Part shown: positions 22,401-60,891 of the stretch, piece after piece
Position numbering within the stretch: position 1 is the first letter of the stretch
How the letters are laid out: each line of letters begins with the position of its first letter
DNA from: Candidatus Omnitrophota bacterium
GTDB lineage: Bacteria; Omnitrophota; Gorgyraeia; Zapsychrales; Zapsychraceae
Direction of reading: 5' to 3'
Assembly (NCBI GenBank): GCA_050250375.1
Contig: JBFWOS010000002.1
Location: 453,149 to 517,148, forward strand
DNA: 64,000 nt
Made by a program: the position numbers and the translations under genes
The notes under the pieces: generated by a model
What the model was told of the DNA's origin: nothing
What the model saw: the letters and a program-made list of their open reading frames with translations, nothing else
Databases searched by the model: none

Positions 22401-25400
22401 TCGGGTGGCGATCGCTTCGATTTCGGCGTAAAGTTCTTTTTTGATCGCATCCATCGGGTCAACAAATTCGACAGTTTCTCCGGTCTTAATGTCCGGGTGA
22501 TTGCTGGCCGTGACTTTTCCGTTTTCATCCAGACGGACCAGAAAGTTGGACCAGGTGACGGCGCGCTGAACAGCCCCGCTGCGGTACCCGAGATCGTCCC
22601 CGCGGTTGTAGATTCGTCCTTCATCCGGATCGAGGTTAGCGCCGATGGTAATTCCTTTTATATCGGACTTGACCACATTGCCGTTGTTGATCACCAATGT
22701 GCCCAGCTTTTGTGTGCCGTCTTCGTTCAGGATTTCGATGGTCTCGTTGACCTGGGTCCGGGTGCTGGTCCGGATGACGGATCCATCGGTCTTTTTCAGG
22801 GTGATCTCGCGCAATTCACGGACGGTCAATAAATGTTTCAGCATCGCCTCCTTGGTGGAGCCCTTGACGCCGCCGAAGTTAACACTCATCCCGCTGACGG
22901 CGAGAATCCCTTTGGCGGCCAGTTTTGCCTCCATCCCTACAAAGGCGTTGTTGGAGCCTTCAATAATGATCAGCGGATCGCGTCCGGCGACATCGCCTTT
23001 ACCGCGCAGCAAGTCAATGGTTTTATCGTTGATCACCCCGCCCATCGCCGCCGGCACGAGCAGATCAATATCAACGATTTCCTTATTAAGGATATCCGTT
23101 CCGGCCAGATGCTCAACACCTATCCGTTCCGGCATCCATTGAAGGACGTTGCGGTCTCCCGGCTGGACATTGTTTAAATTTTGTAATTCTTCAAGGGTGA
23201 ACCCTTCGGGTTTGTAGACCGTCCCGTTGATGTCGGAAATGGCAACGACAATGTATCCCTCCCGGGCCAGTTTCAGGGCGATGGATCCGCCGACATCACC
23301 GGCCCCGATGACCGCCACTTTCAGTTTGGAAGGATCGAGCCCTTTGTAATTGATGATGGCCTGGATGCTGCTGAGGGTCGAATGTCCGGTCACGGCCAGG
23401 TCCACATGCGAGATCGCGCCGACACGGGCAGAACCGCCGGTCACCGCGCTGCCGATAATTTTCTGGATTTCGTCCGCCAGCTGTCCGGTGAACACTTTTT
23501 CCGGAATAAATAATCCGTTCTCGCGGCCGTTCGGTAAGGCCAGGATCAGCCGTTCGCGCATGCGTTCCATCAGGGAATCTTTAAGGAATAGGCTGCCGTT
23601 TTCGACCTCGATTTCTTTAAGGGCGCGTCCGTATTGGGCCAATGTCAGGCTGTAAAGGTCAACGCCGTGGGCCCGGAGCAGTTCGATTTCGTTTTTTAGA
23701 TGGTCCGTGTATCGTTTGATGATCCCGGCAATGATTGTTTCCTGGTTGGCGGAAGACATACCGACATCCGGGCCGCCGTCATAAACTTCCATCAGTCCGA
23801 CGTCGACCATGGCCGTCGCCCAGGCCTTGAGCAGGGTGTCCTTGAGCGGGAGCGCATCCTGGCTGACGCCGAAATAAGTCTTGGCCCCGGCGTAGCCGAT
23901 CCCGGCCAGGACATTTTTGGAATACTGCGAAACAGAGAGATTATTCAAATCGTTGTAAGCGCCTTTCATGATATCAAAGGCCACTTCATCCACATTGCGT
24001 TTGAGCGGATCATTGGCCCGGGCCACCGGCTCGGCGTAACGGATGCCGCCTTTGGTGTGGTCGGCCTTGCTGATGTCGACCAGCTGGGTGATCGCGTAAA
24101 AACGGTCTGGCAGATAAATAAAGATAATTTCTTTTTTGATTTCAATCCCGGTCATTTTGACGCCGTCGAAACGCAGCGCGATCGCCTCATTTTTTTCGCG
24201 CATGTTTATATCCGCGTTGGTCTGTTTGATCAGTTTGATCCCGCGTTCAAATAAAACCGTTAACCATCGGGTTTCGGCGCGTTCCAACATCCCCCGGATT
24301 TCTTTCTCCTTAACGTCCTGGTAAACAAAGCCGATCATGGCCCGCGCGATATCTGGATGGGCGACTAATTCTTTTCTGGCCTCAATGCTGTCGAACACCG
24401 GGCCCTTCCCCTGTTTGGATTCATAATGCGAAAGGATTTCCAGGAACTGCGTCGTTCCCAGCAGGATATCCCGCCGGGCCGCGGCGACATCCGGGATGGC
24501 CTGGTCCAGTCCGGAGCGGTTCATTTTTTGTTCGCGTTGGTCATGGATGTAACGGACAGCTTCGGGGTTTGTTTCCCGTTTTTTAGAGGCGGCCGCTTTA
24601 CCCAATCCCTGTTCTTCGATGGTTCCGGCTGTTTGTTCAGCCTCCGGCATTTGATCATCGGCGATCCCGATGCGTGAATAGAGGCTGGGTAATTGATGGC
24701 GCTGGAAGATCGACGGTGCTCCCTGCCGGACCTGCCGGTCATGGGCCTTTTCCGCGGCCACGGCCTGTCCGATGCTGATATCATAGGTCCCGCGTTTGGC
24801 GGATTCAAAACGGATATTCCCGTACCCGTCTTCGGTTTCCGACTCATTTTGTTCCTCAAGCCTTCCGAGCGCGTTAAAAATATAATGTTTGCCGTCCAGG
24901 GTAATCCCCAGGTCGCTGGCCACCACCAGGCGTTTGATGGCAATCTTCCGGGCCAGGTACGGCGGAAAGAAATAACCCTCGCGGTTCAGATGATCAATGA
25001 CATCGCTGATCACCTGGATAATATATGTGTCTTTAGAGTGTTCCAGCCGCTCTTTTTTGGCGGAGATCAGGTCGGCGATTTTTCTGGCGGCCTGGGCCGG
25101 TGTGAATCCCCGTCGGACGAGTTCCAGGACCATGGTGTTCATCCGGAAAGCGATCCCGGCAATATCGTTGTAAGCGGTCTCCTGGATTTCATCCAGAGGG
25201 TTAATAAACCTGACCGGCAATCCCGCCGGCAGTCCGGGATGATTGCTCTTGACGATGACATTGTCCTGGTTCTGGACGACCAGGTAATTTCCCCAGATAA
25301 CCGTGCGCTGGAGATTGGTCACCCGGTAATTTAAATCAATGCCGTGGCTGTGGACCCGTCCGGTGTTGATGTCAACCGACATGCCGACCACAAGATCCGG

Positions 25401-28400
25401 GATATTCGAACCGACCACGCGGCCGTTTTCGATGATCAGCTGGCCAGAGGCGGATTCACCGGTCAGGTCAACCTGTTCATTGATGACCGGGTTAGACTCA
25501 GCAACGATATCGGATTTCTCAGTCCTTAAAATGTAACGCTGTAATTGTTCAGAGGTAAAGCGGTGTTTGATAAAATCTTCTAGCCAGGACCCGTAGGCGC
25601 CGCCGAAACCGATGCTGGTGGACTTCAAAGCGAGTATGCCTTTTTCCGCGAGTTGTTTTTCAAACCCTTCAAATGAGTTAAAACCGGCTTCCAGATAAAT
25701 CAGCGGTTGACGTCCCGGCTGGTCGTTGTTCCCGCGCATTTTTGCGATATTGTTCGGGTTGACCGTCCGGCCCGGTGCGGCGGAAATAAAAATATCCAGG
25801 TCCACCTGGTCTTTGTCCAGGATCGCGCCGTTCGACAGATGCTGCACCCCGTTTTCTTCCGGCAGCCATTTCGTCACATTACGCTGGTTAATGTTGATGG
25901 ATTCCAGCCGCTGTAATTCAACGGTGCTGAAACCTTCCGGGTTGTAGACGGTGCCGTGGATGTCTTCAATCGCGACGACCTTGTAACCCAGGCGGGTCAG
26001 CATCAAGGCCAGCGAACCGCCGGTGGTCGCGCCTTTGATCCCGATTTTGGTCCCGTGTTTTTCCAGTTTCAAATAATCAATGATGGCCTCGACACTCATG
26101 GCCGTGCTGTACGCGGCCAGTGACCATTCTTTGAGGGAAATATCGTCTTCCTTTGTCAGCAGTCCGGTCGTTGCCGCGCCGATGGTGCGCGCGAGATCAT
26201 CTTTTAATTTTGAATTGAACAGTTTGACCAGGGATGTGCCGCCGTTCTGTCGTCCCAGCGGGGCGAGCGCCACCACCCGCTGGCGCAGGACATCGATCAG
26301 CGGTTCCTGTAAAAATTTTCCGCGGACGGTCCCCTGTTCCAGATCAGCCAGCAGACCGCCGTATTCCGTGGTGGTCAGGGAGCTGAGATTCTCGCCGACC
26401 TTGGATTTAATCATCTCCAGTTCATATTGCAGGTGCTGGAGGTAACGCTGGTTGATGGCTTCCGACAAGGTGTTTTGATCTTTCGCTGTCATGCCCGATT
26501 CGGTCCCGATCACGTAACGCGAAGCCAGCCCGGCATCGACCATCGCCGTCGCGAACCCCTTTAAATGTCTTGATTTGATATTGACCGCGTCCGGATGGAC
26601 CACCAGCACGGTTTTCGCCCCGGCGTACGGGGTCTGGGTGATCGTGTTGCGGTAATATTTGGAACGCGAGATCAGGTCGGTTTCCGTGTAGGCGTCTTTA
26701 AATATCTCAAACGCAGCCCGGTCGGATACGACAAATTTTCCGTGTTTGGTTCTTTCCTGCGGAATTTTGTACCTCAACCCGCCTTCCGCCAGATCACCCT
26801 TGCCGTCTTCATGGTCCACGATCTGGGTGATCGCGTAAAAATAACCGGCCTTATAAGTGAAGACGACCGCTTTCACCTGGGGGTCTTTGGTCAGGGATTC
26901 ACCATCAAAGACCACGGCCACCGGATCATCTTCTTGCCGGAGCACTGAATCAATGCTGGTTGACTTTATATTTTTAAATCCCAGTTCAAATAAAAGGCGC
27001 AGCCACAGCGTTTTGGTCTTTCCGATTTCAGCCAACACCTCGGCTTCAAGATTTTTGTCCGTCAGGTAACGGTTCAGGACAGCGGCGACCGCCGGGTTTT
27101 CCGCCAATTCTTTGCGGGCGGCGATGCCGTCGAACAATTTACCACCCTCCTTGTGCCCGAATATTTCTAGAAACTGGGTCGCGGCCAGTAAGACGTCGCG
27201 GCCGGCCGGAGTCACCAGGTCTTTTAATGCAGTGTCCAGACCGCTGCGGTTTTCCCTTTGATGACGGATATCGCTGATAAAAAGTTTTTCCGATTTGAAT
27301 TTATCGCCCGCCATATCCGGCGGACGTGAATCGTCTTCACCCAGCATCGCGAAATCCGGGGCATAGATCCGGGCGGCATCGGTGATGGAGATTTCCTGGC
27401 CGTCCTGCGTGCGGACCAGGAATTCATAACCGTCCTGGTGCGGGATGATTTGTAACAGGGCCAGGTTTGTCATTTCTTCGGTGTTGGCGCGCCGGATATC
27501 AATGCTCGTAAAAGGATGCATCTTACTTTTGTAAGCCTGGTAAAAATCATCCGGGAGCATATAAAGTCTTTTAGCCATTCCGGAAGCGGCCGGTTTGATC
27601 TCCGTCTGGATCACTTCCGGGCGCAGCGGATCAGCCACGATCTTGACGGACATCGCCTGCAGCATGGCCTGGCGGTTCACGAGCCACATGAATACCTCTT
27701 TAATAAAATCAAGTTCCACTTGCTGGGTCGGCAGTTTGTCTTTCGGGAATCCGAGAAAGGCCTGGGTGACTTCCTCTTTGTTCTTTAAAGTATAGGTCTG
27801 CACATCAAAATCACGGCTTAACGCGGCCAGGATTTCATAGATCAACTTTGGTTCGATCGGTGTATACCGTCTGGAATTATCGGACAACCAGAGGCTGAAC
27901 ATGCGGATGGGTTTTGGCGGATGACCAATATCATAAAATCCGGTAATACCGTTGTAATCAATATCCTTGTGGTTCGGGCTCAGGACCATGAGCATCTGTT
28001 CAATCGCTTCAATGTTCGCATGCAGTTCCCTGGCGGAGTATTCCCGGTCTTTGTCGATGCGGGACAGCATGGCCTGGTCCGCGGGCGTGACATTGATCCG
28101 TTCATTCGTCCGGTCGATGACGATTGAGAAATCTCCGTCACGGATGAACAATTCGGTGGCCTTGTCGTTCGTTTCATTTTTGATCCAGCCGAAGACCCGG
28201 TCATCCCCCCCGGCGGCCAGGATTTTACGCTGCAGGGTCCGGCGCGCGGACCGTCTTTGATCCGCCGTCCCGACCATGGCTTCATCCAGCAACGGTTCTT
28301 CCAGGACAACGATCCGGCGGATGATGGATGCGTCGAAGAAATGCCCGCCGACCGCGTGGATGGCGGTCGGTTTCATCCCGTCATTGAAGCGGTCAAAAAT

Positions 28401-31400
28401 TATTTCATTAGCGTCACCGAAAACATCTTCAATCAATAACCGTGATCCCCACAGCAACGCGACTTCAGAGGCTTCATCCGCGCGGTAAAAATCCGTGAGT
28501 TCGGCGAAAGAATTAAAATATCTTTTTGTGTACGGGCGTGACGGGTTCGCGTTGAACAGGTTAAACGGCAGGGCCAGTTCTTTGTTGTAAATCATATTTC
28601 TTAATTGGGGGTCCATCGGGCCGGCGGCTGTTTCAATCAGGTCGATGAACCGGCCCCAGTCAATCGAGTTGCCGATCAGATAAATCAGAGTCGCGAAAAA
28701 TCCGTTCGGGTAGTCCAGTTCCAGGCTGTCAACCGGCGCGTTCAGCCAGATCGTGGTGGTGCCGGCTCTGGGTGAAATGGTCAGGTGCTGGCGCAAACGG
28801 TTTGAGCGCTGCGCGAAAAACTGGATCAGGTTGTTTGAATCGTACGGCCGGCCGAAACGGTTTAAGGCCTCGACCATCATGAGGACCATCTGTTCGTCCA
28901 GTTCGGGAGAAATTCCTTTCTTTTTAACAAACTCGTCCCAATTATCCAAAAGCCGTTTCAGGTCCAGCGTATCACCCAGGGCAAAGGCCACAAACGACGG
29001 GTTCACGTGTAATAACCGGCCCAAATACCGGGTGTAATCACCCAGCATTGCTCCGTCGGCGCTGACGAATTCGACCGCGCCCAGCCCGATCGGGATATCT
29101 TCCACTTCATATTGGGCTTTGGAAAACGTGATGAAATAGACGTCTTTGGTCAGGCCGGCGGGTGTCAATAATGTCCCGCGGTTGCCTTCTCCTTTAGAAA
29201 TTATGATATCTGCCTTGTCCCAGGCCCGGACAAAATCCGGGGTGGCCCGGCGCAGGTCGGTCCCTCTGGTCTTGGACCCGCTTGAAATGACCCTGATCTG
29301 TCCGCTCGTTGCGTGTTTCCCAAAATATTGTTTGACTTCATCCAGGTACAATAAGGTCTTAATGTCATCGGCGGTGACATCGTTGTCCGCTTCCACGGCC
29401 TTTCCGACCAGGGTCACGGAGTGCCCGCCTTTGAGGATGAACAGGATCAAAGGCAGGTCATAAATATATTCAATGATGTTGTCAAAGAGATAAACCACAT
29501 TCTTCGGTTCCTTCTCCATCAATTCGGCGACCAGCCGGGACGTATCCCGCTGATGATACAAGATATCTTCATTCAGGTAGGACTGGATATATTCTTCAAG
29601 CGAACGCGGGTCGCCTTCCAGGATCCGTCGACGGAATTCGGTTGAGCTGGTGATGTTCCCCTTAAGAGCGAGTTCGACCGCGCGTAATCCCCTTTCATAC
29701 CCCCCGCGGCTTTGCTCGACATAGGCCTGCAGTTGCGGCAGGAATTCCAGGGCGATATCGAGGGCCTTGGTTTTATAATTCGACATCGGTTCACGCACGT
29801 TCGCCAATTCTTTAATATAGTCGTAGCCGACCTCTTCGATTTCACGCAGGGTCAGCTGGTTCAGACTCTCCCGGGACAGGAAGTTGTCCAGCATTTGGCG
29901 CGCGTTGCCGGCCGGTCTTTTTCCATGCCTGAGCGCGATTTCAAGATAACCCCTTAGATGTTCCTGGACCCTCTTGCGCACCATCGGATCGCCGTATAAA
30001 CGGCGGCCGGGAAGGTAATCACCGGGTTCCTGGACAAAGATCGGGCTGACCGGGTCCGTCCGCAGGAACGCTCGCAAAAATCCGTCATCGTTGTCCGTGG
30101 TGGTATCGGCTTCCATCGCCTGGTCGGCATGAATGATCACCCGGGCCTCGTCTAATAAACGCGTTCGGTCCAGGTAGGTCCGGCCGATCTTTTTTCCATC
30201 CACCTTGACCGAGACCCTCTTGGGGTCGCGTTTGCCGATGTTGAGCAGTCCCTGGACGGTTGTGCCGGGTTCGACAAAATAAACCCGCGCCTCTTTTCGT
30301 TCGTTGGTGATATTGATTTTAAATTTTGTTTTATGGCGGATGTCTTCTTTAATTAACGCAACGACGCGTGTTAACTGCCGGGCGGCCGCGGCATCCGGTG
30401 TCTCTGCGGAAAGGAGCCGGATGGATGTCTGAATTCGTTTCGCGGCGCGGATGAGTCCCGGTTCCACGTGCGCCAGGTCAAAATATTCCTGGTTGAGTTC
30501 CGTTAACAGGTCACGCGCTGAGATGTATTCACCTTCTTTAATTAATAATCCGATGCCTTCGATCCGCTGGGTGATGTCGTCGTCGCGGAATTCCAGGAAC
30601 AGGCTGGTCGCGCTGACCTTCAGGTGAGCGGCGATCCGGTCGATGTCTTTTAAGCGTTTGTCCAGCTGGGCAATGACGCCCTGCAGGTGGGCCTCGGCCC
30701 GTTTAAAATCGTCAGCCTCAATGAGCGTGATCACCGGAGCCAGGTCAATGGTGGCAAAGATTTTAGGGACGACAAATCCCCTGCCTGTCCACTGCTGAAG
30801 TTCACGCAGTTTTTCGATCATCACTTCCCTGTTATGCTGGGACAGGGGTGTTTTGCGTCCGCGTTCTTTGCGCTGGTCGGCTTCTTTTAATTTCTTCGCG
30901 TAATAGGTCAGGTCCGTTTTGTTTTTCAATACGACCATGTACTGCGCCAGTTCCGAAGCGATCTTTTTGACCTGGCCGTCAAACGCCTTGCGCAGTCCCC
31001 GGTACGGCACGTCGCTCCAGACCATCTGTTTGGGAAAATGGATATTCGCGGTCAGGCTTTCCACGCGTGATTTGATGTCGTCTTTGATCTCGCCCGCTTC
31101 CAGTTTTTGTCCCGGGGTCAGCCGGCTGATCACATCTTTTAAATCCTTCAGGTCCTGCGTGATATTTTTGTACCGTTCGAGTGTGACCAGATAATGCAGG
31201 CTGTACAGGCCGGTCAGTTCATCAATTTTTTCCAGCGCCTGGGCAATCTCGCCGCGGTTGGCTTGTAAACGGATCTGGTCAAGCCGGGTGTGCACATTGA
31301 TCGGCCGTTTCTGGCGGACCAGCACGGTCGGTTCATCCTGGCCGTCTTTTTCATCCACATCAATATCAAAAGTTCCGAGCCGGTAGGTCCTGACCCGGTT

Positions 31401-33950
31401 CCCGAGCCAGTCATTGGTCTCAAATGATTTTCGCAATTGTTGTCCGCGCAGCCGCTGGATGCGGTATTCCAGTTCGATCTCAAGGGCATTGGCGCTGTTG
31501 ATCGCACCTTCCAGCGCGTTTAACGCCGGCACCGGATGGCGGATGCCGTCGCGGGAGTTTCCGGTCAGGAGCATTCCGGCAACGAGGATTTGGACCTTGA
31601 TCAACAAGCGTTTGTTGCGGATCGAATCGAGATTCAGACGGCTTAGTTCCGCCTTATTTTTACGGATGTCCGCCAGTTCAATCATGCGCGACAATTTGCG
31701 GCGGTTGTCTTTTAATTCTTTGAGGGCCTGGCTGTAAAATTCGTAAGACTCACCGGAATGGATCTTCACCGGCATGTCGGAATAAAGATTTCTTAACTGG
31801 TTGACCAGCATCTGCTCGCGCAGTTCAACCGCCTGATATTGTTCCGGGGTAGACGCTTCACGGCGTTGGGCGATGATCTGTTCCAGTTCCCCGTACAGGA
31901 TGCCTAACTGCTGGCGGATCTCGATCGAGGCGCGGCGTTCGGTCTCGCGTTCATTCTCTTCGCGTTCCGGGACTTTCCCCCACGCGGGGACCCTGATCTC
32001 CAGCCGGTCTTCCGTTGACATCATGGCCTGGTCCGAGTGGTCGATATTCAGGCTGATCGCGGCCAGCAGGTTTGACAGGCGCATGTGGACCAGTTCCGCC
32101 AGTCCCACCCGCTTGAGCAAATCATTCCCGACGGCATCCGGCAGTTCCAGATAAAACCCGGTGAATTGCCGTTTGATGACGGTCAACTGCGGCGCCTGTT
32201 CAGCCGGCTGCGCGGTTGAATCCGCGCGGAAAAGCGGGACCGTTTTTAATTCCCCGGCAAGATGCTGCTGGATTTCCCGGATTGAATCGACATCCGCGTC
32301 CGCGGCCGGTTCGTCCGGATCGTGTTCCCAGAGCGTGATGACATCCGCGCTGACGGTTTGTCCCCGAGCGTTTAAAAATTCTCCGGATTTGAAGATGTCC
32401 GGTTTATAGGTTTCATCCGCGATGGTGATGCGGTCGATCATTTTTAAAATCCCGTTTAGAAGTGATTTCTTTTTGGCGGAGGATAATAAAGCAGAATCAC
32501 CGCCGGTGGGAAATAATTTTTGTCCGCCGTAAACGACCTCAATGTGGACTTCATTGGCCATGGAATACATGTTGAACTGGCCGAACTGGTCTTTGGTTTT
32601 ATTCCGCAGTTTCCCGGCGACCAGCGTCAGGATGATGTTAAACGCGGTGTCGTGCGGGAATTGGGCCAGCAGTTCACTCCGGAAAAAGACTTTGATATTC
32701 TTGGCCGGGTCCTCTGAGGCGATCTTTCTGGCCGCCTCAATGTGAAATTCCAGATCATCTTCGTTGACGAAAATGGCCTGGTCCGCGCTCTGCAGTCCGG
32801 CATAAGTTGAGACCGTTTTAAATTCTCTGGTCGCGGCGGCTTTCTGTAGGGCGTCGGTCAAGCCGGTCTCGAGTTTTTTCTCCGACAGCTGGGCCATGTC
32901 CACCCCGCCCGAAAAGTACCGGCGAGGAATCGTCTCGTGGCTGACCGCGTCAATATCTTCTTTAATGTAATCAAACACGCCGCGTTTGAAGGCCGCGATG
33001 TACTGGTTATAAATTTTTTCCTTGATATCTTTTTCCGCGAGGTCAACCCCGCTGATCTTGTTCTGGTCGACATAAATCCGGCCGAGCACGCTCTCTTTCA
33101 GGTTCTTCTTGTACCACGCGGCGAGGATCAGGGAATGGAACATCTGGCGCAGCGGGGCGAAATTTTTTCCTTCATTGATTTCCCGTTCGATTTCCGGGAT
33201 CAGGACCTCCCGGACAATATCACTGTTAACGCCGGTGCGGATCGTTTCATCCGTTGCGGCCGGCGCGTCCATGGCGGAATGGTGTTCCAAAGCGAGGTAA
33301 TCTTCTTCCAGCATGACTTTAAGGTGGCTGTCGGAAACAAAGACATGGTTGTCGTTGACAAAGACTTTGGCCCGTTCCGGCACAATCCAAATTTTATTAA
33401 AGGTGTTGAGCGGGATATCGGTGGTCCCGAATTGGCTCTGTGCTTTGCGGTAGACACGGTCCCAGAATTTTTTTCCCAGTTCGTCTTCCGGATAAAGCAT
33501 TGAGGCGCTGAGCTGTTTTAACAGGTAATCCTGCGCGAGCATGTCCCGGCCCATCGCGGTCTGGCTGAGCGGCTGGGCGATGATGCGGTCTTTTTCATAA
33601 GGCGAAAGGTTGACCCACATCTGGTCTTCCGGCACGGTCAGCGCGGCAAAGAAATAATTGATCAGTTTTTGGGATTCAGTCCTGAAGGCCTCTCCGGCCA
33701 GGCGGTCATCCCCGGTATCAATGAGGAAATCCACGTTTAAAGGATCGGCTGTGTCAATGCGCATCCCCGTGATAATCGCGGGGGTAAAGACGGCGCTGGT
33801 CTGGACCATCAGCCCGGGCTGGGGCAAAAGCACCATCTGGGCATAGGCCAGCTGCGGGGCGATCATGTTCAGGCAGAAACACACGATCACGGACCAGATC
33901 ACGCACCGGCGGCTTAAACGTTCAAGAGTTTGTTTGAATGGTTTACTCAT
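19485..33950 (-). CDS. Giant secreted multidomain protein (4821 aa): signal peptide, shared N-terminal module, DUF89-like domain, two ~900-aa tandem units each carrying a Glu/Leu/Phe/Val-dehydrogenase-like domain, and a shared C-terminal module
   Basis: A single uninterrupted ORF with an ATG start, a signal peptide ending ...LAYAQ and no internal stops over 14.4 kb. The domain calls rest on motifs: PYAGAKTV versus GGAKGG, NAD-binding [36 protein letters not shown], and the DUF89-like SKGEGNRG. Confidence 0.85.
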   Translation of the reverse strand: [4821 protein letters not shown]

Positions 33951-41190: not shown

Positions 41191-41201
41191 TTCCACTTTT
41201 T

Positions 41202-43040: not shown

Positions 43041-46000
43041 CTATCGCGCCAGGGTAAGTTTGGGGGCGGCGGGGGTTTCTTCGTTTGGTCCGGCATGGCC
43101 CAGGATAAACGGCAGGTACAGGACGGGGCGGATGTCGATGATGACCGGGAAGTATCCGCCGATGTGCATGAGTTCCAGCGGCTGTTCCTGGATGGGCAGC
43201 GGGATGCCGAAGTCATCACGTTTGATCTGTAAATCCAGCCAGCGCGGGTTTAAGTCGATCCCCCCCACGGACTTGATCGTCTGTTCTTCGGCGGACATCA
43301 TGTGGTCCTTTTTGGGATCGGACGTCCGGACGTGGGCCAGGACTTCCGGGTTGAGGACATTTTCCGGGATCTTGCCGTCAATCAGGCGCCTGAGGTTCAG
43401 CATGGCGCGCGCGATCTTGAATTGCCTGACCTTCCAGACGGCGGCGGCCGTGTGGCCGGACAGTTTGACATTGGTGAGCTGTTCCCCCTCATCGTTGACA
43501 AACCGGCGCTGGCTTTCCCCTTCGTCGTTTAAGACGTCCAGCCGGATCTGAACGCCGGGGTGTTCGATGGCGTAATGGATCAGCGCGTTTTCATCCACCT
43601 GGAATTTGCTCGCGTTGATCAGGACGCGCACCGGGCCTTCTGCGTCCAGACCGAATTGCTGCAGGGCCTCTTCGTTCACCCATTCGACATTGCGCTGTTT
43701 GGAGGAATCGTCCAGGGTGGTGACAATATTACTGCGCCGGAAGAAATCCATTTTGTCGGCGTAGGCCGGCGCTTTCATGCCGGGCCCGTACACCTTGCGG
43801 CGGTTGTCGGCGATCTGGCTGAACGCGTCATGTTTGGCCTCCAGGTCGCGGGTGTCCATGCTTTCGGTATCAATCAGGAGATTAACGCCGAAGGCCAGCG
43901 CCCGTTTCGCCAGGGCTGTCCCGATGCGCCGGATGCCGTGCACGCCGAACGTCTGACGGGCGAGGCCCGTCTGAAGGACGTTGCTATCCTTAATAAAAAT
44001 CTGGTCCGCGTCAATCACGACCCCTTTGACCTTTTCCTTGTCCCGCAGGCTTTTGTAGGCCTTGTCCGACGGTGTTTTCAGGATATAATCGGACGACCGC
44101 ACCAGTTCCGATTCCTCCACGAGTTTTAAATTGATCGAGATCCCTTTGATCTCGGAGTTTTTTATGATCGTCTGGATCAGGTCCTGGATCCGCCGGCGTG
44201 TGGATTCGCTCAGTTGTTCATATTCTTTGCGCAACACATAAATGGTGGCGGCCTGGTGGATGACGGCGGTTTCCAGCAGGTTGACCCCGGCGGTCTGCAG
44301 TCCCAGGATCCCGATCGTGGTGTGGATGCCGGCTTCGTCGTTCTGCCCGATCTGGTCGTGGTAAACGGTTGAATCGGGCGACACGCCGGTCTTGGCGTAT
44401 TTTCCGGAGCGGCCGAATTCAAACATCTCGTCCAGTTTCAGGGCTTTTTTGAGCAGCATGTACCACATGATGTGGGCCGCGTTGAGGCGTTCTTCGTTTG
44501 TCTTGGGCTTGACGCCCGAGAGTTTGACCGAGCCGGGTGTTTGTTCGAAGGAGACAAGCTGTCCGTAAACGCCGTCTAACGCCAGGGCGATATTCTGTTC
44601 GGCCACGGCGATGGTCGTCGGGCCGGGCGCGGTCGTGACCACGGTCTGGTGGCGGGTCGCCGCGTCCAGGTCGATATTGTGTTCGGCCGTGGCAAATAAG
44701 ACCAGGCCTTTCAGGTCGGCCTTTTCAAAGAAGGCGTCGTCAAAGCGGGTGTTGCAGTAACCCACGCAGAAGTCGTAGTCTTTCTGCGAGACGATCTGTC
44801 CGACGTTCGGGTCAATCCCGGCGATCAGACGCCCGTCTTTCTCAACGACCTCGGACTCGCTGCCGATGATGTCAAAATTGATATCGGAGAAATTGTCGCG
44901 CAGGGCCTCGATCATGTCCGGGTTGAGCGGTTCGACGACAAGAACGTTTGTCTTCCCCCTCTGCGAGGTCATCCGTTTAAATTTGAGTCCGGCCAGGGTG
45001 ACGTCGGTTTCTTTGTGGTACAGCACGTGGCCGTTTAAGATATTATGCGGGACCTGGAAGTTCATCAGCCGTTCCAGATTGTCCAGGGCGCGCTGAACTT
45101 TAAGCCGGCGGACCTGCGGAACGGCGGCGGCGGTGTGGCCGGCCACTTTGATATTGGGCAGCGGATTGTTCGACGCGTCCCTGAAGCGCTGGTGGGCGTC
45201 GCCTTTTTCTTCCTGGTTCACCACGTCCAGGCGGACTTCGACGTCCGGACGGTCCCGTAAATAATGCAGCAAGGCCTCTTCATCGATCAGGTTTTTGACC
45301 TGGCTGACAATGGCGCGCACGTCGCCCTTGGCGGACACGCCGAATTGTTCCAGTTTTTCGGCGTCAATCCACGATTCCGTTTCCGTGGTTAAAGGTGTTA
45401 AGGTCGTAATGATATTGCTCTGCTGCATGAAATGATCAAGGTCAACAAAAACGGCCCTTTGCTGTTCCGGGCCAGCGTCCCGCAGCATGAAAAATGACAG
45501 GCTGTTGAGGAAGTCGATTTTTTCCGTATACATCGGACGGGTGGATTCCCTTTGGTTGATCAGGGCGGTCGCGCGCAGGGCGATCACCCGCTGGGCCACG
45601 GCCTTTCCGATGCGTCCCAGCCCCTGTATCCCGACTTTCAAACCGGCCAACGAAAGTGAAAGCGTGGCCGGGTCTTTGATAAAAATGGTCTGCGGGTCGA
45701 CGTCGATCGGGTGCGCGTCCAGGAAATCACTTAAAGTCCTGTTCTGCCGGGCGGCCGGGGTGGCGATGGTGTAATCGGACACTTCCACCAGCACTTCTTT
45801 GGGCAGCGGTTTGATGGAGATTTTCATATCGTATTTACGTTTATTTTCTTCCATCGTTTTGATGAGGGATTGAAACCGCTCTTTGGCGGTTTCGTCCAGA
45901 TTTTTGTATTCATCTTCATCAACATAAATGGTGGATAATTCATGGGTGATGGCCATCTCGATGAGCCGTTCACCGACGGAATCAAGGCCCAGGATCCCCA

Positions 46001-49000
46001 GGCTGGTGTGGATGTCGGCCTCTTTGTTCTGCCCGAGCTGGTCGTGGTAGACGGTGGCCTGCGCGCCCACACCCGTGCGCACGTAACGTCCCTTGGTGGC
46101 GAAGGTGAACATTTCATTGAGTTTGAGCGACTGCTGCAGGAGCCGGTACCAGATGATCTGCGCTTGGGCATCGGGGTCCGCGCCGGTTTCCCGGACCAGA
46201 TCCGTCATGCGGCCGGTGGCCAATGTTTCTTCGGACAAGACCTTGCCCGCGTAAATGGAATCCAGCATCAGGCCGATATTTTGTTCCGCGACGGCCACGG
46301 TGGTCGGGCCCGGGGCGTTGGTCACAACGATGTCGTTGCGGCTGGCCGCGTCCAGGTCGATGTTATGAACGCCGGTGGAAAACAGGATCAGTCCCTTAAT
46401 TTCGGATGTGTCAAAGAATTCTTGGTCAAAGGTCTCGTTCACGTACCCGAGGACATAGTCGTAATGTTTGGCCTTGACCAGATCTTTGAGTTTGCCGCGC
46501 ACGCCGGGGATCCAGTTGGCCGTGTCGTCTTCGACAATCTCGGAGTCCGGCTGGATGATGTCGAAGTCCACATTCCCCATCTTTTTATGCAGCATGGAAA
46601 TGATGTCCGGGCCGATGGGTTCAACAACAAGAATGCGCGCCCGCGGATTGGGGACTTTTAAGACCAGGAATTTGAGGCCGTGCATGGTTGTCTCTGTGAC
46701 TTCGAGTTTCGGCCCGCTGACCATCCGATCAATTGTGTCATCGGTGTGCGGGATCCCCATCGAGGTCAAGACCTTGGCGATCCGGTGGCTGGACAGGCGG
46801 TACTGGTTCGGATAAGGAAAAATGTCCGGCAGCTGATTGGTGTCCATGCGCCATTTTACGGAATTCCAGAAATCCGGCTGAAACAAATCGCCGTGGATTC
46901 TTGTAAATTCTTTCTGGAATATTAACGGGATTTTCAGTTCCGCGAACAGTAAACCCGGATACACCCGGAAACGGTTTTTGCTGTCTTCCCTGGCCGGCAG
47001 TGTGACGACCGGCGGCTGGACCTTGCGGTAACTGGGGGCTGTGCGGAATTCTGTTTCTTCAATGCGGCCCAGGCCGGCATTGTTCATATAAACGACCCGG
47101 CCCCAGGACGTGATCCCGAAATGCCTCAGCGACATGTCTAAAGGGAAAATCCCCATCGACGCCAAATGTTTGATGTTCCAGCCGATTTTAATCAGGATAT
47201 CCAGCTGGGCGGCCGCATCGCTCTGGGCCCAAATGTCGGCAACCGGCGTGATATGCCGCTGCGCGAACATATTGATAAATGTGATGTGCGTTTCATCCAC
47301 AAAAATATCGGCGCCGGCCTCGCGTTTGAGCAGATCGACCAGTTCCGGGTCTACCATCGAAATGGGAAAACGCACATTCGAATACGCCCAGGAATCCAGC
47401 AGCTGCCCGTGCCGGTTTGATTTATGGATATCGCGGTAGGTATCCACGATATGCCCCCGGTTGGGTGCGTTATCCCTGATCACTTTAATGACGATGGGTG
47501 ATCCGGGTACCGCCATGGTGATCGACTGGTCCCCGTCCCCCAGATATTGAAGCCTGTTTCCGCTTTGTTCCATTTGTTCGTACAGTTCACCGAGATAGAT
47601 TTGCTGGGAACGCTGCGTGAGCCCGACTAGGTCGTAAATCTGCGCGAGGCTGACTTCCGGGAAAATGTCGGCGATGAAACGGATGACCTCCGGAAAATCC
47701 GGCGCGTTGATCATGAACGACGAACGGGTCGAGGACAGCAAAAGGTTTTTTGAGGTTAAATAATCGGTGACGACCGCGTCGATGACGACGCCGTTGTTCG
47801 GGTGTTTCAGCGCGATGATCAGCGGCACCGGTTTGTCATTGGTCAGAAAACGGCCGACCACGTACGCGGCCTTGTTGCGGTAAAACAGGGGTTTAAGGAC
47901 TTCAATCCCTTTGATCTCGACGTCCGCAGGCAGATGGGACAGCTGTTCCTCCAGCATCGCCGCGGTGATTTCGATATCCGTATCAGGGGTTTCGTACAAA
48001 TCCCGCAGGTCAAAGTCGTTGAGGATGGCCTGCACCGTCTCGCGCAGCGCCTGCGGTCCCTGGTACGGGTGCTGATGAATGACCTTGTCCGCAGGTGTCC
48101 GGATCCCGGAAACGGGTGTTGTCTTGTAATCTTTACGTAAAGGAAAATATGTCAGCCGGCTCATGACGGAATCCAGGAAACTTAACAGCAGGTCCTGTTT
48201 GTAATAGTCCTCCTGCGTTTCATAGTTGTGGCGAAGCATTGTGCGGATTTCGTCCCAGATGTGGACGTCGTCGATATATTCGCCCAGGATCATGCCGATG
48301 ATCTGGGTGGTCTGGTTGCTGATGCTTTCCTGCATTTCAAGCCGCATCTGTGAATAAATCAGGTTGCCGCGCCAGTCTTTATCACGGAAGAAAATCCGGG
48401 CCTTGTCCGTGGTCCGTTTAAAATGCAGGTAATATTCTTCAAAGCTGTGCTGGAATTCCGTGACGGCGGCGTTGAGGGTGGTCTCGTACGGTCCGGCCCG
48501 GTAATCCAGGATTGTTTTTTTGCTGTAATCGGCGCGATGGCGCAGGATAAATTTAAACATCTGTTGGCGCTGGTCATCGGTCAGATCATTCTGCGCGCTT
48601 AAGGAAGATTGGTTCCAGTCGCTGGGCGTGATGGTGTTGTACGCGCCGAACACAAAATGGACATGTTCGGTTTTATCCGGATTGTCGATGAACCATTCCA
48701 TTTCCCGGGCGAGTTCGTCGCGTTGCGGATGCGAAAACAAGTCGCGCGGCACCAGGACAAAGACCGGTTTGTCTTCGGTCGCGCGGGACGTGACGGCTTC
48801 CAGCAGTTTTTCGGCCGGGACATTGTCTTCCGTAAAAAATTCCTGGAAGCTCTCCTGCCAGGTGGACAGGCCGGAGACGGCGGCCAGCGCGGGATAACTG
48901 TGCTGCCAGGTGTCGAACCCGAGCAGGTACCCCCCTTCATATCCGGACAGCGGGATCCGGTCGATGAAATCATAAACGGTCATGGCTTTTTGGCGGATCA

Positions 49001-50330
49001 TCTCAAATCCGTCAAGATTGGTCCCGTAGAATTCGTTTCTCAAATTCCGCAACTCTTCCGTTAGGTTCACCGGATGCAGGATTTTGATTTGTTTCCTCGC
49101 GATCATCTGGCGCAGGGTGTCGTCTGATAAAGGTGCTGCCTCGTCTTCGCCGGACAACATGGCGGTGTCCGCGTTGGCCCCGATGTCGTATAAATCGGCG
49201 GTGACCTTAAAGAGCCGGGTATTCTGCGCGGAGTAATCATTAAGCATGGCCTGGTCCCCGGGGGTCAATGCGGCCGGGTCGCCGGTCAGGACGCGTAAAT
49301 TCCGCTGCTGGACGGGAAGCAGCCCGCCGGAAAAATATTGCCGGGGTAACACCTTGTGACTGACCGGGTCGACGTCTTCTCGGATAAAATTATACACCCC
49401 CACTGTAAAGGCCTTCATATACTGCTCATAGATTTTAGCGTTGAGCGTTTCATCCGCCGAGTCAATGCCCCGGATTTTATTGCGGTTCACATACGTCTGG
49501 GCCAGCAGGCTTTTTTTCAGCGTCATTTTATACCAGGTGGCAAGGATCATGGCGTGATACATCTGGCGCAGCGGGGCAAATGTCTTGCCGTTGTTCACTT
49601 CCTTTTCAATTTCCGGGATGATGTGTTCCCGGATCAGGCCGGTCAAACGCTGGTCGTCTTTGACGGCTGATTCATCCGTCGGCCGGGCGGCATCCAGGTA
49701 ATCCTTTTCCAGCATGACGGTCAGGTGGCTTTGGATCACGTAAGCGCCCTGGGTGTGTTCGTACACCACCGCGTTGTCCGGAACGATCCAGATTTTATGC
49801 AGGAAATCATTAATATCCATTTCCGGCGCATTGGTCTCTTTCAGCGCTTTGGACCAGAAGGTCCGGCCGGGCTCCTGGTCGGGATGCAGGAGCGACGCCG
49901 TTAATTGTTTCAATAAATAGTCCTGGCTTAACAAATCCCGCCCCATCCCGGTCCGGCCCAGCCCTTCGGCCACCATCCGGTTTTGTTCGTGGGGTGATAA
50001 ATTGACCCACATTTCATCTTCGGGGACGGTTAAGGACGCTAAAAAATATTTGATCAGCCGGGCGGATTCATCCTGGAATTCGGCGCGGCCGTAGGGGTCG
50101 CCGCCGGCCTTGATCATAAAATCAAAACGCAAAGGGTGTTCGGGGTTAAGGATGATGCCGGTCAGCAGGGCGGGTGTGTAATTTTCCGTCGGTGTGATCA
50201 GGGTTCCGGGCACGGGCAGGTGGCTGGTCTGGGCAAGAAGTACAGACGGCGCCGCGAGTTGTATTAAGAAGACAAACGCGGTGGCGCAAACCAGGGCTTT
50301 AAATCCGAATTGTCGCGAAGAACGTGCCAT
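43041..50330 (-). CDS. Giant secreted multidomain protein (2429 aa): signal peptide, shared N-terminal module, full-length AceK-like isocitrate dehydrogenase kinase/phosphatase homolog, two tandem D-isomer-specific 2-hydroxyacid-dehydrogenase-like units, and the shared C-terminal module
   Basis: An ATG start with signal peptide ...SVLLAQ. The AceK-like segments include [16 protein letters not shown]..., [21 protein letters not shown] and [10 protein letters not shown]. The 2-Hacid_dh motifs are [33 protein letters not shown] and GHTAAAV, each present twice. Confidence 0.85.
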   Translation of the reverse strand: [2429 protein letters not shown]

Positions 50331-57213: not shown

Positions 57214-60200
57214 TTAAGGGGTATAGGCGCTTAAGGTTAAAATGCCCGTGTCGTCTTCCTTAATATACGGGGATTGGCTGCGGATGGAGATTTCCGGATT
57301 GTCCTCATCCTGCGCCGGATCGGCGATTCCCAGCAGGAGCGGGAGATTATTCACGGGGATGATCTGGAAGATCACCGGGGCAAAACCGTCCAGGGGCATG
57401 GATTCCAGTTCCCGCAAAATGAGCGGATCCAGCGGAACGGTCATGTTGATCCCCTTCCCTCTTTTTTCGATAATCAAATCGGCCGGGTTAAGATCGATCC
57501 CCCCGACCCTTTCGCTGGTGGCGGTTGGAGTCACATCTTCCGCTACGATTTGCGGCGGGATATCCGTTGCGGCGACGACCGCCGGCGTTTCGATGTCTGT
57601 GACCGGCGATACAGTAGTTCCGGCCGGCAATTCAGTCCCTCTCAAATCGTTCTGGTATTTCGTGTACAGGGTCGGCAAATCCGTTTCAAAATTAAAGCGG
57701 TAACTGCTGCGCATGCGGACATCGTCATCGGGATCTTCCTGAACGTTCCAGACGCTGGCGCCGATGGCTTTATAAAAATTCTGCTGGCGGGTGACCGCCG
57801 GTCTATTCCAGAAATTATAGGACCACCAGGCGGATGTCACATTCCCCTGGGTTTTTTCGGCGATGTTGGTAAATGTCCGGTGGAGCAGCCAGCTGGCGGC
57901 CTGTGTTCCCTGGAATTCCGGGGCAACCACAAAATCACTCATGTAAACGGCATTGCCGTTGCCGTTATATTGGACGATGGCATAACCGACCGGTTCATTG
58001 TTCGTATCCAGCAGGACAAAACTGTAATCATCCATATTGCTGCGGTTTTCGATGGGGTTTAAACGGAAGCGCATGATCTGCCCGTTTAAAACCCGGTATT
58101 TCTGGTTGCTCAACAGCATTTCTTTGGTCAGCGGCGCGATGCGGATTTGCTGATTATTAATCGTCTGGACATCGGCCAGGACCGCGTTGTCGCTTTGCCC
58201 TAAAGCCGTCTGGTCCAGTCCGGCGATTGCCTGGTTTAAGTCGTTGCTCAGGTCCTCCATGCTTTCATAATTTTCATTCGGATTGGCGAACAGGGCCTTT
58301 TCAACGATCGCCCAGATACTGGCCGGCATGTCATTCTGAGGTGTCCCGTCAAAAGTCGTTGTTCCTCTGAATTCCGCGGGATTAACCGGCGCGAGGGTCA
58401 TGGTCTCTTTATTCAGCATTGCATCGTTAATCGTGGCCCTGGCCCGGGAAAATGTATTGAGCAGGATTTCTCCGATGACGATCATATCCCGGTACTTGAT
58501 GCCGGCCTGCAGAGACCTGACGTCGGTCTTGTCGAGGTCCATTTTTAAGGTGTCCCAATCGATCAGGCGCGGACGGCCGGTTGTTTCATCAATGATAATA
58601 TTTTCCGTATGGAGATCCCCGTGAAACGCCCCGTACGTCGTGGAGATGTAAGCGATTTCCCGGGCGACCTCCGCCAGAATCCTTAATCGTTCCCCCCGGT
58701 CAGTGACGGCATCAAAATGGGTGCCGCGGATGAATTGCATTTCGATCATATTCGGTTGCAGCGAAATATTGTCTTCCAGATTGGCGTTGGGCATGGCGAC
58801 GAATTGTTTGACCCGTTCGTCATTACGGACGGCCAGAAAGAATTCAAGCAGGCTGATTTTATCCATTGAGATAATATTGTCTAACAAAAACTGGCTGAAA
58901 AATTTGATGGCCAGCGGTTCGCTTTCCGTCCCGTCCGCCCTGATCTCCACGCCACGGAATACCGGCTTGAGCAGGTCCGCGGCAATAATTTCCTCCAGCC
59001 GGTAATCTTTTCCTTTAACCCGGATGACCACCGGGCGCCGGTCAACGATGACCTGTTTTAATTCGTCCAGCAGCTGCTGGGAGCGGTCCCCGAAGAAATC
59101 ATCCACATTGATCTCGACCTGTTCACCGGTTGATGCCAGGACAGCATTGTCGGATGTGGCCAGACGCACGCCGGCCTCAAAAAACGGCAGGGCGTTCGCC
59201 GCGTCGTACTGCTGAACAACAATCTGCTGACTGAGCGCGGTATCGTTGGTGATCTCAACCGTTGTCCGGGTGCCGGTCACTCCGTCCTCTTCGGTTGCCT
59301 GACGCGCGGCCGGGCTGACGGCCCGCCCGTTCAGGTCCGATAAAACCGTCGGAGCTGAATCAATGTACACCCGCAAAAGGCTCTGGTATTGTCTGAGGAA
59401 TTCATTCCGTTGCCGGTTGTCCCGGCTGACGTCTGCCAGCCGCTGGCGGACCTGTTCGAGAAAACGCGCGATCGGCGCCTCAATCGGACGGGTTTCACCC
59501 GGGGTGTCTCCGGTTAAATCACTGATCAGTGTCTGCAGCGCGCCTGTCAGGAAACTGTAATTCCGGCGCTGGAATTCCCTGAATTCTTCTTCGACAAAAC
59601 GTTCGGACACGCCTAATGTGTCGGGATCAACGCGGGATGAATCCTGGTTGACGATGCCGGAACGCAGACCGCCGGTCACCGGGTCAACCCCGCTTTCCAC
59701 CATGAACGTGACGCCTTTGGGCTGAACAGGCCGGGTCAATTCACGGACGACCCGCAGATTGTTATTATCGAGCGACCCGAACTGCAGTTCCATCCCACCG
59801 GAAAAATATTTACGCGGGATCAGTTCCTGGGAGACGGGATCAAATTCTTCCTTGATGTAATTGTAGACGCCGACCTTGAACGCCTCGAGGTATTGATCGT
59901 AAATTTTCTGTTTGATTTCCTTGTCAGCCACATCAACCCCGCCGGTCTTGCTCTGGTCCAGGTAAATCCGTCCCAGCAGGCTCTCTTTCAGGTTGCGTTT
60001 GAACCAGGTCGCCAGGATCATGGAATGGTAGACCTGGCGCAGGGTGGCGAAATGTTTGCCTTCGTTGACTTCTTTTTCGATGGCCGGGATCAGGATCTCC
60101 CGGATGATCTCGGCCGTCACGGTCCTTTGTTCCCGCGTCTGTTCATCGGTAGCGGCTTCGGATTGTTTGAGATTTTTATTCTGGTCGAATTCGGTGTGGG

Positions 60201-60891
60201 CGATGTAATCCTGTTCCAGCATGACCTTCAGTTTGCTTTCGACCACAAAGGCCGTGTCGCCGTTTTCATAAACCACCGCGTTGTCCGGGACGATCCAGAC
60301 TTTGATGAACGTATCCAGCTGGAGTTCGGCGGAACCGTATTTCCGGACGATTTTCTGCCGGACATCGTTCCAGAAATGTTCCCCCAGCTTATCTTCCGGG
60401 TACATCATGGAGGCCGTCAATTGTTTGAGCACATAGTCCTGGGCCAGCAGGTCGCGCCCCATTTCCGTGACGCCGAATTTGTCCGGGATGATCCGCTGTT
60501 TTTCAAAAGGCGACAAATTGACCCACAGGTCTTTTTCCGGAATGGTTAATGAGGCCAGAAAATATTTGATGAGCCGGTTGGACTCTTCATACAAAAAGGA
60601 ATCCACGGTCTTTTCATCCCCTGTTTCCAGGATAAAATCAAAACGCAGCGGATTGTTGGGATAAATGCGCAGTCCCTTGATCAGGGTCGGATTGTAGAGA
60701 TTGCTGGTCTTGACCATCTGTCCCGGGGTGGTCAGGTGGAGCGCAGACAACCATGGTTGCGGTCCCGGCCGTTCTTGCGCGTAAGTATATTGAGCCGGCA
60801 CAGTCAGGCCAAAACCGATCATGAAAATGATCAGCGCTGTTACCAGGCGTGAGCCTCTGGATGATTGCCGTTTTTGTAGCCACTGAAACAT
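57214..60891 (-). CDS. Giant secreted multidomain protein (1225 aa): signal peptide, shared N-terminal module, RIO/Kdo/APH-type protein-kinase-like domain, GNAT acetyltransferase-like domain, and the shared C-terminal module
   Basis: An ATG start with signal peptide ...QYTYAQ. The kinase catalytic-loop and metal-binding motifs are [14 protein letters not shown] and LIDWD. The GNAT motif is [17 protein letters not shown]. The C-terminal module is GGIDLNP...[17 protein letters not shown]. Confidence 0.85.
   Translation of the reverse strand: [1225 protein letters not shown]

Follow-up and report, generated by a model that had tools for sequence, protein, structure and literature searches.

What remains of AceK, the isocitrate dehydrogenase kinase/phosphatase, when it lies in the middle of a much longer protein that begins like an exported one? 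The question is raised by a minus-strand gene in a 64,000-nucleotide stretch, here called the window, of contig JBFWOS010000002.1 from a Candidatus Omnitrophota bacterium. A preliminary description of this DNA had claimed a complete AceK homolog embedded in a 2,429-aa secreted protein, with its active-site motif replaced. The flagged stretch does encode a complete two-domain AceK fold. Its residues indicate a pseudo-AceK, in which the chemistry of phosphotransfer appears to be lost and the ATP-anchoring lysine is kept. Along the 2,429-aa protein, the signal-like start is followed by an N-module, an unassigned region, the pseudo-AceK, two units resembling D-2-hydroxyacid dehydrogenases (2-HADH-like units), and a C-module, which lie in the window as follows (matches are to hidden Markov models, HMMs, unless stated otherwise; AF2, AlphaFold2):

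43041..50330, minus strand: whole gene, 2,429 aa, from the open reading frame (ORF) list and its translation
50229..50330, minus strand: signal-peptide-like or signal-anchor start, residues 1-34 (MARSSRQFGFK, then a hydrophobic stretch ending LLA-Q)
49122..50228, minus strand: N-module of the Omnitrophota frame family, residues 35-403 (N-module HMM, E 1.6e-153)
48495..49121, minus strand: unassigned region between the N-module and the cassette, residues 404-612
47541..48494, minus strand: AceK regulatory-domain homolog, residues 613-930 (PF20423, E 1.8e-45; AF2 model matches AceK crystal structures)
46779..47540, minus strand: degenerate AceK kinase-domain homolog (pseudokinase/pseudophosphatase), residues 931-1184 (PF06315, E 5.8e-37)
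47472..47537, minus strand: shortened Gly-rich loop (DGDQSITMAV) and retained K949 (in VIKVIRD), residues 932-953
47070..47147, minus strand: catalytic loop and metal-binding segment FPLDMSLRHFGITSWGRVVYMNNAGL, residues 1062-1087 (alignments to E. coli AceK)
44991..46748, minus strand: first expanded 2-HADH-like unit, residues 1195-1780 (PF00389 and PF02826)
43326..44990, minus strand: second 2-HADH-like unit, residues 1781-2335 (self-comparison to the first unit)
43044..43325, minus strand: C-module of the frame family (GGIDLNPRWLDLQIKRDDFGIPLPIQEQPLELMHIGGYFPVIIDIRPVLYLPFILG and tail), residues 2336-2429 (C-module HMM, E 3.4e-36)

The AceK-like part and its active site

Both AceK domains are recognized in order and above their gathering cut-offs by the profile alignment that had been set beforehand as a check: AceK_regulatory (PF20423) at residues 628-923 (155.9 bits against a cut-off of 25) and AceK_kinase (PF06315) at residues 938-1174 (128 bits against 29.3). 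The NCBIfam AceK equivalog NF002804 aligns residues 626-1182 with positions 16-577 of its 582-position profile (E 7.3e-88), at a score of 295.6 bits that is under the 488-bit equivalog cut-off. Among the sequences of the PDB, phmmer matches E. coli AceK (4p69, 3eps, 3lc6; E ~1e-40) over chain residues 12-567. Ordinary AceKs, used as a profile, place the homologous span at residues 613-1184, corresponding to window positions 46779-48494. The span first proposed, residues ~530-1185 (46778-48743), is therefore right at its end and begins ~83 residues too far upstream, since residues 530-612 fall in the unassigned region, outside AceK homology. The peptides quoted from it are present in the translation, for example, LFYRNKAAYVVGRFLT at residues 815-830 and FPLDMSLRHFGITSWGRVVYMNNAGL at the metal-binding segment.

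An AF2 model of residues 600-1189, made with 22 aligned sequences (mean predicted local distance difference test score 84.5, predicted template modeling score 0.83), superposes on AceK crystal structures. In a Foldseek search of the PDB, the top matches are all AceK entries (6k5l, 3eps, 3lcb, 4p69; E ~1e-36 to 1e-28; template modeling, or TM, scores 0.80-0.88). The best two, 6k5l and 3eps (TM scores 0.83-0.87, E ~1e-36), cover both domains, and ordinary protein kinases rank far behind. The sole long stretch of low confidence, at model residues 503-519, lies at the position of the substrate-recognition loop of AceK. Together with both Pfam domains and the PDB sequence matches, the model confirms that a complete AceK homolog is embedded in the protein.

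For the active site, E. coli aceK (from NC_000913) was aligned with the query, its relatives, and ordinary AceKs, and E. coli numbering is used throughout. In the characterized enzyme, D457, N462, and D475 form the catalytic triad (PMC3747045), K336 and K461 contact ATP and G320-M323 constitute the Gly-rich loop (PMC3747045, PMC6591243), and D477 and E478 act at the second metal site and in dephosphorylation (PMC6591243). The query keeps K336, the ATP-binding lysine, as K949 and D457 as D1065. Its replacements are K461 to R1069, N462 to H1070, D475 to N1083, Y476 to Asn, D477 to A1085, and E478 to G1086, and the Gly-rich loop G320-M-V-M carries a 3-residue deletion that leaves it without its Gly. 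At the same positions, 85 of the ~110 AceK-like proteins shorter than 700 aa read K-D-K-N-D-Y-D-E. The alignment to E. coli AceK thus bears out the reported replacement of YDYDE by MNNAG. The motif positions first given are correct, and the loss of catalytic aspartates holds for D475 and D477 but not for D457.

Mutagenesis of D457, D475, D477, and E478 has identified these residues as needed for the kinase/phosphatase activity of AceK (PMC6591243). Mutations of the triad D457/N462/D475 abolish kinase activity (PMC3747045), and under standard assay conditions no phosphatase activity is left in D457A, D477A, or D477K (PMC6591243). Metal binding is affected as well: neither Mg2+ nor Mn2+ is bound by D477A, a single Mn2+ but no Mg2+ by D477K, and Mg2+ only weakly by D475A (PMC6591243). 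Because the mutants show triad and metal-site residues to be needed for both the kinase and the phosphatase reaction, the loss of phosphotransfer that had been predicted for the embedded domain is a reasonable prediction from its residue map.

The cassette and its stand-alone relatives

The embedded unit extends well beyond AceK. A word-indexed search with the AceK region alone returned 18 ordinary ~580-aa AceKs and missed all long relatives, whereas an exhaustive HMMER search yielded 647 AceK-like representatives. Among them is a 1,704-aa protein (P0140) that aligns from query residue 617 through both 2-HADH-like units, with 38% identity over 1,734 columns. A search with this protein recovered 38 further clusters of 1,679-1,728 aa, together with two shorter ones (977 and 1,526 aa), of the same Pfam architecture. 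In all, query residues 613-2336 are colinear with 38 stand-alone ~1,700-aa proteins, which they match nearly end to end (38-40% identity over ~1,720 residues). The stand-alone proteins have no signal-like start, N-module, or C-module; they start at the AceK-like part, so that residues 404-612 of the query are absent from them too. By these alignments, what is embedded is a whole pre-existing ~1,700-aa protein, consisting of a pseudo-AceK and two 2-HADH-like units, and not AceK alone. The preliminary description was thus right about the embedding, and the unit is larger than it supposed, occurring elsewhere by itself and with a dead active site.

Source names, given for few of the stand-alone proteins, are Gammaproteobacteria, Pseudomonadota, or Desulforhopalus metagenome-assembled genomes (MAGs), with contigs of up to 6.4 Mb; here and below, the taxon labels of relatives are those of the depositors. 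In five of the six loci on which our neighborhood statistic rests, genes for malate synthase and isocitrate lyase (ICL) adjoin the stand-alone gene. Both are adjacent in four loci (L083, L084, L086, and L088), and in the Desulforhopalus locus (L085) the gene, malate synthase, ICL, and a monomeric isocitrate dehydrogenase (IDH) follow on one strand. Neither malate synthase nor ICL lies beside the gene in the sixth (L087). The stand-alone genes hence sit roughly where aceK sits in the ace operon of E. coli. The sixth locus is on a contig of 64% GC (GCA_029260765.1, JAJDCP010000087.1) and holds the most divergent stand-alone cassette protein (P0324), whose neighbors include a gene for a long HEAT-repeat protein and an ARMT1-like gene.

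The degenerate active site is common property of this cassette family. Over 41 members, including two Omnitrophota proteins, position 336 is Lys in all, position 462 is His in all, and position 477 is Ala in 40. Position 475 is Asn in 21 members and Asp in 19, and position 457 is Ser, Thr, or Ala in 39, most often Ser. As the stand-alone family shares the degenerate signature, the active site would already be dead there, and the Asp at position 457 of the query is, on this comparison, probably not a sign of maintained catalysis.

NCBI has a protein identical to the query (P0001), from an Omnitrophota MAG and a contig of 1,006,043 bp. A full-length ortholog of 2,439 aa (P0002), from another MAG, is 50% identical to the 2,429-aa protein; no synteny is seen between the two gene loci. 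Identity is 44% in the N-module, 40% in residues 404-612, 42% in the regulatory domain, 50% in the kinase-like domain, and 56-60% in the 2-HADH-like units. Since the kinase-like domain, at 50%, matches the conservation of the protein as a whole and exceeds that of the N-module, at 44%, the dead domain is under purifying selection.

Downstream of the pseudo-AceK, Pfam recognizes PF00389 (72.9 bits) and PF02826 (83.9 bits) in two stretches each. The two 2-HADH-like units are 41% identical to each other (self-comparison, E 2e-151) and measure ~560-590 aa each because ~200 residues lie between their catalytic and NAD-binding parts. Their best named relatives are glyoxylate/hydroxypyruvate reductases, with a PDB alignment to 2cuk. 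The best NCBIfam match of the first unit is glyoxylate reductase (E 4.5e-34), which is far under its cut-off, as are all equivalog scores. The nucleotide motif is intact in the first unit (GLGRIG) and degenerate in the second (GIRRIG). Both units keep the catalytic Glu and His; the canonical R-G is replaced in both (SQVKN, ASKFQ), with a Lys one position away, where the comparison with P0140 indicates that the HMMER alignment may be off by one residue. These motif features are conserved in the ortholog.

Databases automatically annotate proteins of the cassette family as AceK or "AceK regulatory subunit", a label that is misleading for a protein without the catalytic residues. We found no paper that describes the stand-alone family of pseudo-AceK with tandem 2-HADH-like units, and full-text searches gave no paper connecting AceK to pseudokinases of this kind or to fusions with 2-hydroxyacid dehydrogenases.

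The embedded AceK of an exported giant protein had been put forward as undescribed; AceK-like domains do occur in other long proteins: 21 of the 150 best AceK-like representative clusters are at least 1,000 aa long, many of them with intact catalytic residues. The full catalytic set is kept in, for example, P0141, P0146, and P0247, and most or all of it in P0143, P0168, P0203, and P0207; P0003, which has Asn at position 457, P0147, P0162, and P0258 are degenerate. P0168 and P0203 combine AceK with a histidine-phosphatase domain. Only P0001, P0002, P0003, and P0203 among the long AceK-bearing proteins have the frame of N- and C-modules described below.

Several of these long proteins have features of their own. 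P0139 (1,228 aa) is a tandem of two complete AceK units with catalytic residues intact in both. P0179 (4,875 aa) carries AceK (979-1636), malate synthase (1668-2305), isocitrate lyase (2364-2892), and an aldo/keto reductase, and hence unites in one chain the products of the E. coli aceBAK operon. Ten proteins without N- and C-modules (P0141, P0143, P0146, P0162, P0168, P0179, P0207, P0253, P0258, and P0261) have signal-like starts and share a different extreme C-terminus (...QAA, ...SAA, ...VQA, or ...TAA), which hints at a second conserved frame or a C-terminal signal.

The conserved frame around the cassette

A search with the whole protein gave more than 1,100 significant matches among 8,000 candidates scored. 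The best 120 relatives measure 1,339-4,134 aa, and most of them cover ~12-20% of the query and carry other cargo. HMMs of the N-module (~370 aa) and the C-module (~60 aa, with the pattern GGIDLN...LPxLLG near the C-terminus) find both modules in all 120. Neither module has a Pfam, NCBIfam, or PDB sequence match, permissive thresholds included, and the same is true of residues 404-612. The same pair of modules encloses over 1,000 Omnitrophota proteins with other, diverse cytoplasmic enzymes as cargo. Cargo in the relatives includes glucose-6-phosphate isomerase, phosphoglucomutase, phosphoglycerate kinase, PEP carboxykinase, aldolase, isocitrate lyase, malate synthase, acyl-CoA dehydrogenases, AMP-binding enzymes, response-regulator receivers, and GGDEF domains. 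A crude regular-expression test for the active-site Ser motif of phosphoglucomutase cargo was positive in 5 of 15 relatives.

There are at least 581 N-module loci in species-representative genomes, often several per genome. The 80 listed loci are labeled Omnitrophota, "uncultured Planctomycetales", or unnamed bacterium MAGs; the family thus appears restricted to Omnitrophota, in several copies per genome, with some of its MAGs labeled "uncultured Planctomycetales". In 14 of the 80 loci (L003-L082), another family gene lies upstream, its own C-module ending no more than ~400 bp before the N-module, and frame genes therefore often form head-to-tail tandem arrays. One 64.9-kb contig (JAGOSC010000005.1) has at least three frame-family genes. 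The flanks fetched for the 80 loci contain no cargo-less member in which the C-module would follow straight after the N-module. The conserved part of the N-module ends in an invariant YFSGG (residues 332-336, window 49323-49337), and the C-module starts with GGID (2356-2359, 43254-43265). One possibility is that the two modules are halves of a single domain split by cargo insertion.

Genome context for this organism is that of the 64-kb window, which contains three frame-family copies, all on the minus strand. The other two are:

19485..33950, minus strand: frame-family paralog, 4,821 aa, with an N-module of 44% identity (BLASTP E 8e-95) and a C-module match
57214..60891, minus strand: frame-family paralog, 1,225 aa, with an N-module of 45% identity (BLASTP E 2e-92) and a C-module match

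By Pfam, the cargo of the 4,821-aa paralog includes ARMT1-like and Glu/Leu/Phe/Val-dehydrogenase domains. The 1,225-aa paralog carries a GNAT acetyltransferase domain and has weak matches to APH-like kinase models; its APH and TCAD9 matches lie under the gathering cut-offs.

The export-like start of the 2,429-aa protein is shared by the frame family. With a 19-residue Kyte-Doolittle window, the N-terminal segment (residues ~7-34) is the only part of the protein to exceed 1.6; the proline-rich C-module peaks at 1.45. Residues 3-26 are modeled as a helix by AF2. In the frame family as a whole, the median n-region contains 3.5 Lys/Arg and 0 Asp/Glu, at least one Lys or Arg precedes the hydrophobic stretch in 112 of 120 proteins, and the long uncharged stretch ends in motifs like A-x-A-Q or Y-A-Q in the members inspected. 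Such a start has the pattern of either a Sec signal peptide or a signal anchor of N-in type, and points to export. Of the description of the protein as secreted, the signal-like start stands, as the only hydrophobic segment; secretion itself is a prediction from sequence features.

Part of the 3' end of the gene is duplicated. Its last 105 nt (43042-43146) recur 478 bp downstream (42564-42668) at 87% identity, and a 68-aa ORF in the downstream repeat ends ...PFILGHAGPNEKIPAAPKLTLAR, nearly matching the C-terminus of the 2,429-aa protein. Between the repeat copies, a 110-aa ORF (42669-43001) has a marginal Pfam match to an Rv0078B-related antitoxin (27.9 against 27.1 bits). The arrangement looks like an insertion into the 3' end of the gene that brought or kept a replacement end. 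Beyond it, Sel1-repeat, TPR, and MORN-repeat proteins are encoded in a stretch of low GC content (~39400-42500) that may be acquired DNA; the GC content is 0.345 at 40-42 kb, compared with ~0.52-0.55 in the surrounding sequence. A second MORN-repeat protein is encoded at 61049-62257.

Function, location, and relation to known systems

We consider it reasonably probable that the protein contains a phosphotransfer-dead module that still binds nucleotide and has been retargeted by the frame, with both the export and the biochemical role as inferred below. The pseudo-AceK would no longer phosphorylate or dephosphorylate isocitrate dehydrogenase. As its lysine is invariant, it may bind nucleotide, or else a metabolite, and act as a regulatory, sensor, or docking module instead of a catalyst. 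It could be coupled in this role to the attached 2-HADH-like units, which resemble NAD(P)-type 2-oxoacid reductases, at the isocitrate/glyoxylate node. The N/C frame would take the protein across the cytoplasmic membrane or anchor it there, placing it in the envelope or beyond.

Several observations weigh against this account. The equivalents of K336 and D457 are retained, and the His and Asn could bind metal, such that residual or altered catalysis is possible in this protein. No ICL, malate synthase, or IDH homolog is encoded in the window. In a survey of complete Omnitrophota genomes by KEGG orthology, ICL and malate synthase were found in 0 of 176 and IDH in 165 of 176 (10.64898/2026.06.07.730766). 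With no shunt genes in the window and none in the survey, this organism may lack the usual partners of the cassette. Some framed Omnitrophota proteins (P0032, P0051, and P0100) do contain Pfam domains of isocitrate lyase and malate synthase; either the genomes differ from those of the survey, or orthology thresholds miss embedded enzymes. Outside the cytoplasm, it is not obvious where the ATP- and NAD(P)-dependent modules would obtain their cofactors, and this speaks against simple secretion. Finally, the signal-peptide call is made from hydrophobicity and charge alone, and the structural model of the N-module is of moderate confidence.

The same cassette could instead work without being exported, in a cytoplasmic role like that of the stand-alone family and within a membrane-tethered set of metabolic proteins. 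We give this a lesser but appreciable chance. The cargo types of the frame family are all classic cytoplasmic cofactor-dependent enzymes or regulators (PGI, PGM, PGK, PEPCK, acyl-CoA dehydrogenases, and response regulators) and argue against a simple extracellular job. The hydrophobic stretch, with its helix modeled at residues 3-26, is long for a cleaved signal peptide, and West-Roberts et al. caution that the extracellular prediction for glycolytic domains, made for much longer Omnitrophota proteins, may be a topology error. However, positive charges precede the hydrophobic stretch and no charge follows for ~40 residues, which by the positive-inside rule predicts an N-in, C-out orientation. 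The members inspected have an A-x-A-like site after the stretch, and no second hydrophobic segment is available to return the chain to the cytoplasm. Ordinary, unframed cytoplasmic enzymes are also encoded nearby, including iPGM, aspartokinase, and homoserine dehydrogenase.

A further alternative, which we consider unlikely, is that the cassette is a delivered effector: the frame would serve the whole phylum as a means of delivery, and the cassette, once inside a host or prey cell, would bind the isocitrate/glyoxylate branch point or divert it. An epibiotic or predatory way of life has been inferred for the phylum (PMC10066038). The target cell would supply the ATP, NAD(P)H, IDH, ICL, and malate synthase, and so also the shunt partners reported absent from complete Omnitrophota genomes. 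The size of the frame family, its multiple and often tandem copies per genome, and the high variability of its cargo between conserved ends would fit delivery, the last by analogy with the layout of MARTX toxins. On the other side, no secretion-system gene lies beside this gene or its ortholog, Pfam finds no pore-forming, RTX, or protease domain, this organism has no host on record, and translocation remains putative. In its furthest form, the N/C pair would be an undescribed phylum-wide frame that exports captured whole cytoplasmic proteins to the surface or into host or prey cells, where the dead AceK docks on IDH or its partners and redirects carbon to the benefit of the nanobacterium. This stronger proposal is speculative and unlikely.

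That the protein is still an enzyme, an atypical AceK whose phosphate transfer relies on K949 and D1065 together with a His/Asn metal site, in the manner of some non-canonical kinases, seems improbable. The retained equivalents of K336 and D457, in the ortholog as well as in the query, would speak for it, and general chemistry allows His and Asn to coordinate Mn2+ or Zn2+. Against it stand the mutant data given above for the triad (PMC3747045) and for D475A, D477A, and D477K (PMC6591243), the deletion in the Gly-rich loop, and the catalytic base itself, whose substitution in 39 of 41 family members and in P0003 argues that selection has not maintained it. An assembly chimera, or a fusion becoming a pseudogene, is rejected as scarcely credible: the source is a MAG, and immediately downstream comes the 478-bp insertion with its duplicate of the gene end, but the frame is unbroken over 7.3 kb, the same architecture with every domain conserved recurs at 50% identity in a second genome, and the GC content of the gene (0.554) is near that of the flanking chromosomal stretches (0.52-0.55).

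If the phosphotransfer-dead, retargeted module is the correct reading, its significance is twofold. A conserved dead AceK lineage, fused to dehydrogenase-like units and found at the usual place of aceK, points to a second, non-phosphorylating way of handling the branch point, an idea that is directly testable in Desulforhopalus-like bacteria. In the Omnitrophota version, whole proteins would have been taken up as cargo into a very large family that lacks annotation and combines conserved ends with a signal-like start. This family bears on the question of why tiny, probably host-dependent bacteria encode many cytoplasmic enzymes in export-like proteins, and orthology-based metabolic reconstructions of Omnitrophota may miscount the enzymes hidden in it.

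Compared with E. coli AceK (PDB: 3EPS, 3LCB, 6K5L), the pseudo-AceK has the same two-domain fold, can be aligned over nearly the full AceK length, retains the ATP-anchoring Lys, and has an insert at the position of the substrate-recognition loop. It differs in its low identity (~22-25%, below the NCBIfam equivalog cut-off), in lacking N462, D475, D477, E478, and the Gly-rich loop, in being an internal part of a 2,429-aa protein and not a ~580-aa stand-alone enzyme, and in having no ace operon in the window. With pseudokinases such as Toxoplasma ROP5, which is among the weak Foldseek matches, it shares a fold that is kept, metal and catalytic residues that are lost, and a nucleotide-contact Lys that is kept; the pseudo-AceK, however, is of AceK-type lineage. 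The closest likeness is to the stand-alone family (e.g., MDJ0805864.1), in both domain order and the degenerate signature of K336, H462, and A477. Most of that family carry Ser at position 457, whereas the Omnitrophota protein keeps Asp, and they lie beside malate synthase and ICL, whereas the Omnitrophota copy is embedded and has no such neighbors in the window.

In layout, the framed proteins resemble MARTX toxins, in which conserved N- and C-terminal regions surround variable enzyme-like modules. The likeness is one of layout only: Pfam finds neither RTX repeats nor a cysteine protease, there is no sequence similarity, and no type I secretion genes are nearby, and we reject membership of this group.

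That long Omnitrophota proteins can carry metabolic-enzyme domains is known in general from earlier reports (10.1101/2023.11.21.568195, 10.64898/2026.06.07.730766). AceK and the N/C modules are unmentioned in both of these giant-protein preprints and in the Nature Microbiology survey (PMC10066038). The "Archaeovorins" and "multi-enzyme metabolic clusters" of this phylum share with the present protein their central-metabolism domains and their signal peptides or transmembrane helices, and the long multi-enzyme proteins pose the same puzzle of cytoplasmic enzymes predicted to be outside the cell. Those of the Archaeovorin studies are at least 10,000 aa long, with many transmembrane helices, HEAT/TPR repeats, glycosyltransferases, or dockerins, whereas the protein described here has 2,429 aa, one hydrophobic segment, and no HEAT, TPR, glycosyltransferase, or dockerin Pfam families; we therefore reject an Archaeovorin- or dockerin-type giant and assign it to the family defined by the N- and C-modules. 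The present findings build on the AceK family and on the enzyme-bearing long proteins of Omnitrophota, both of which are known.

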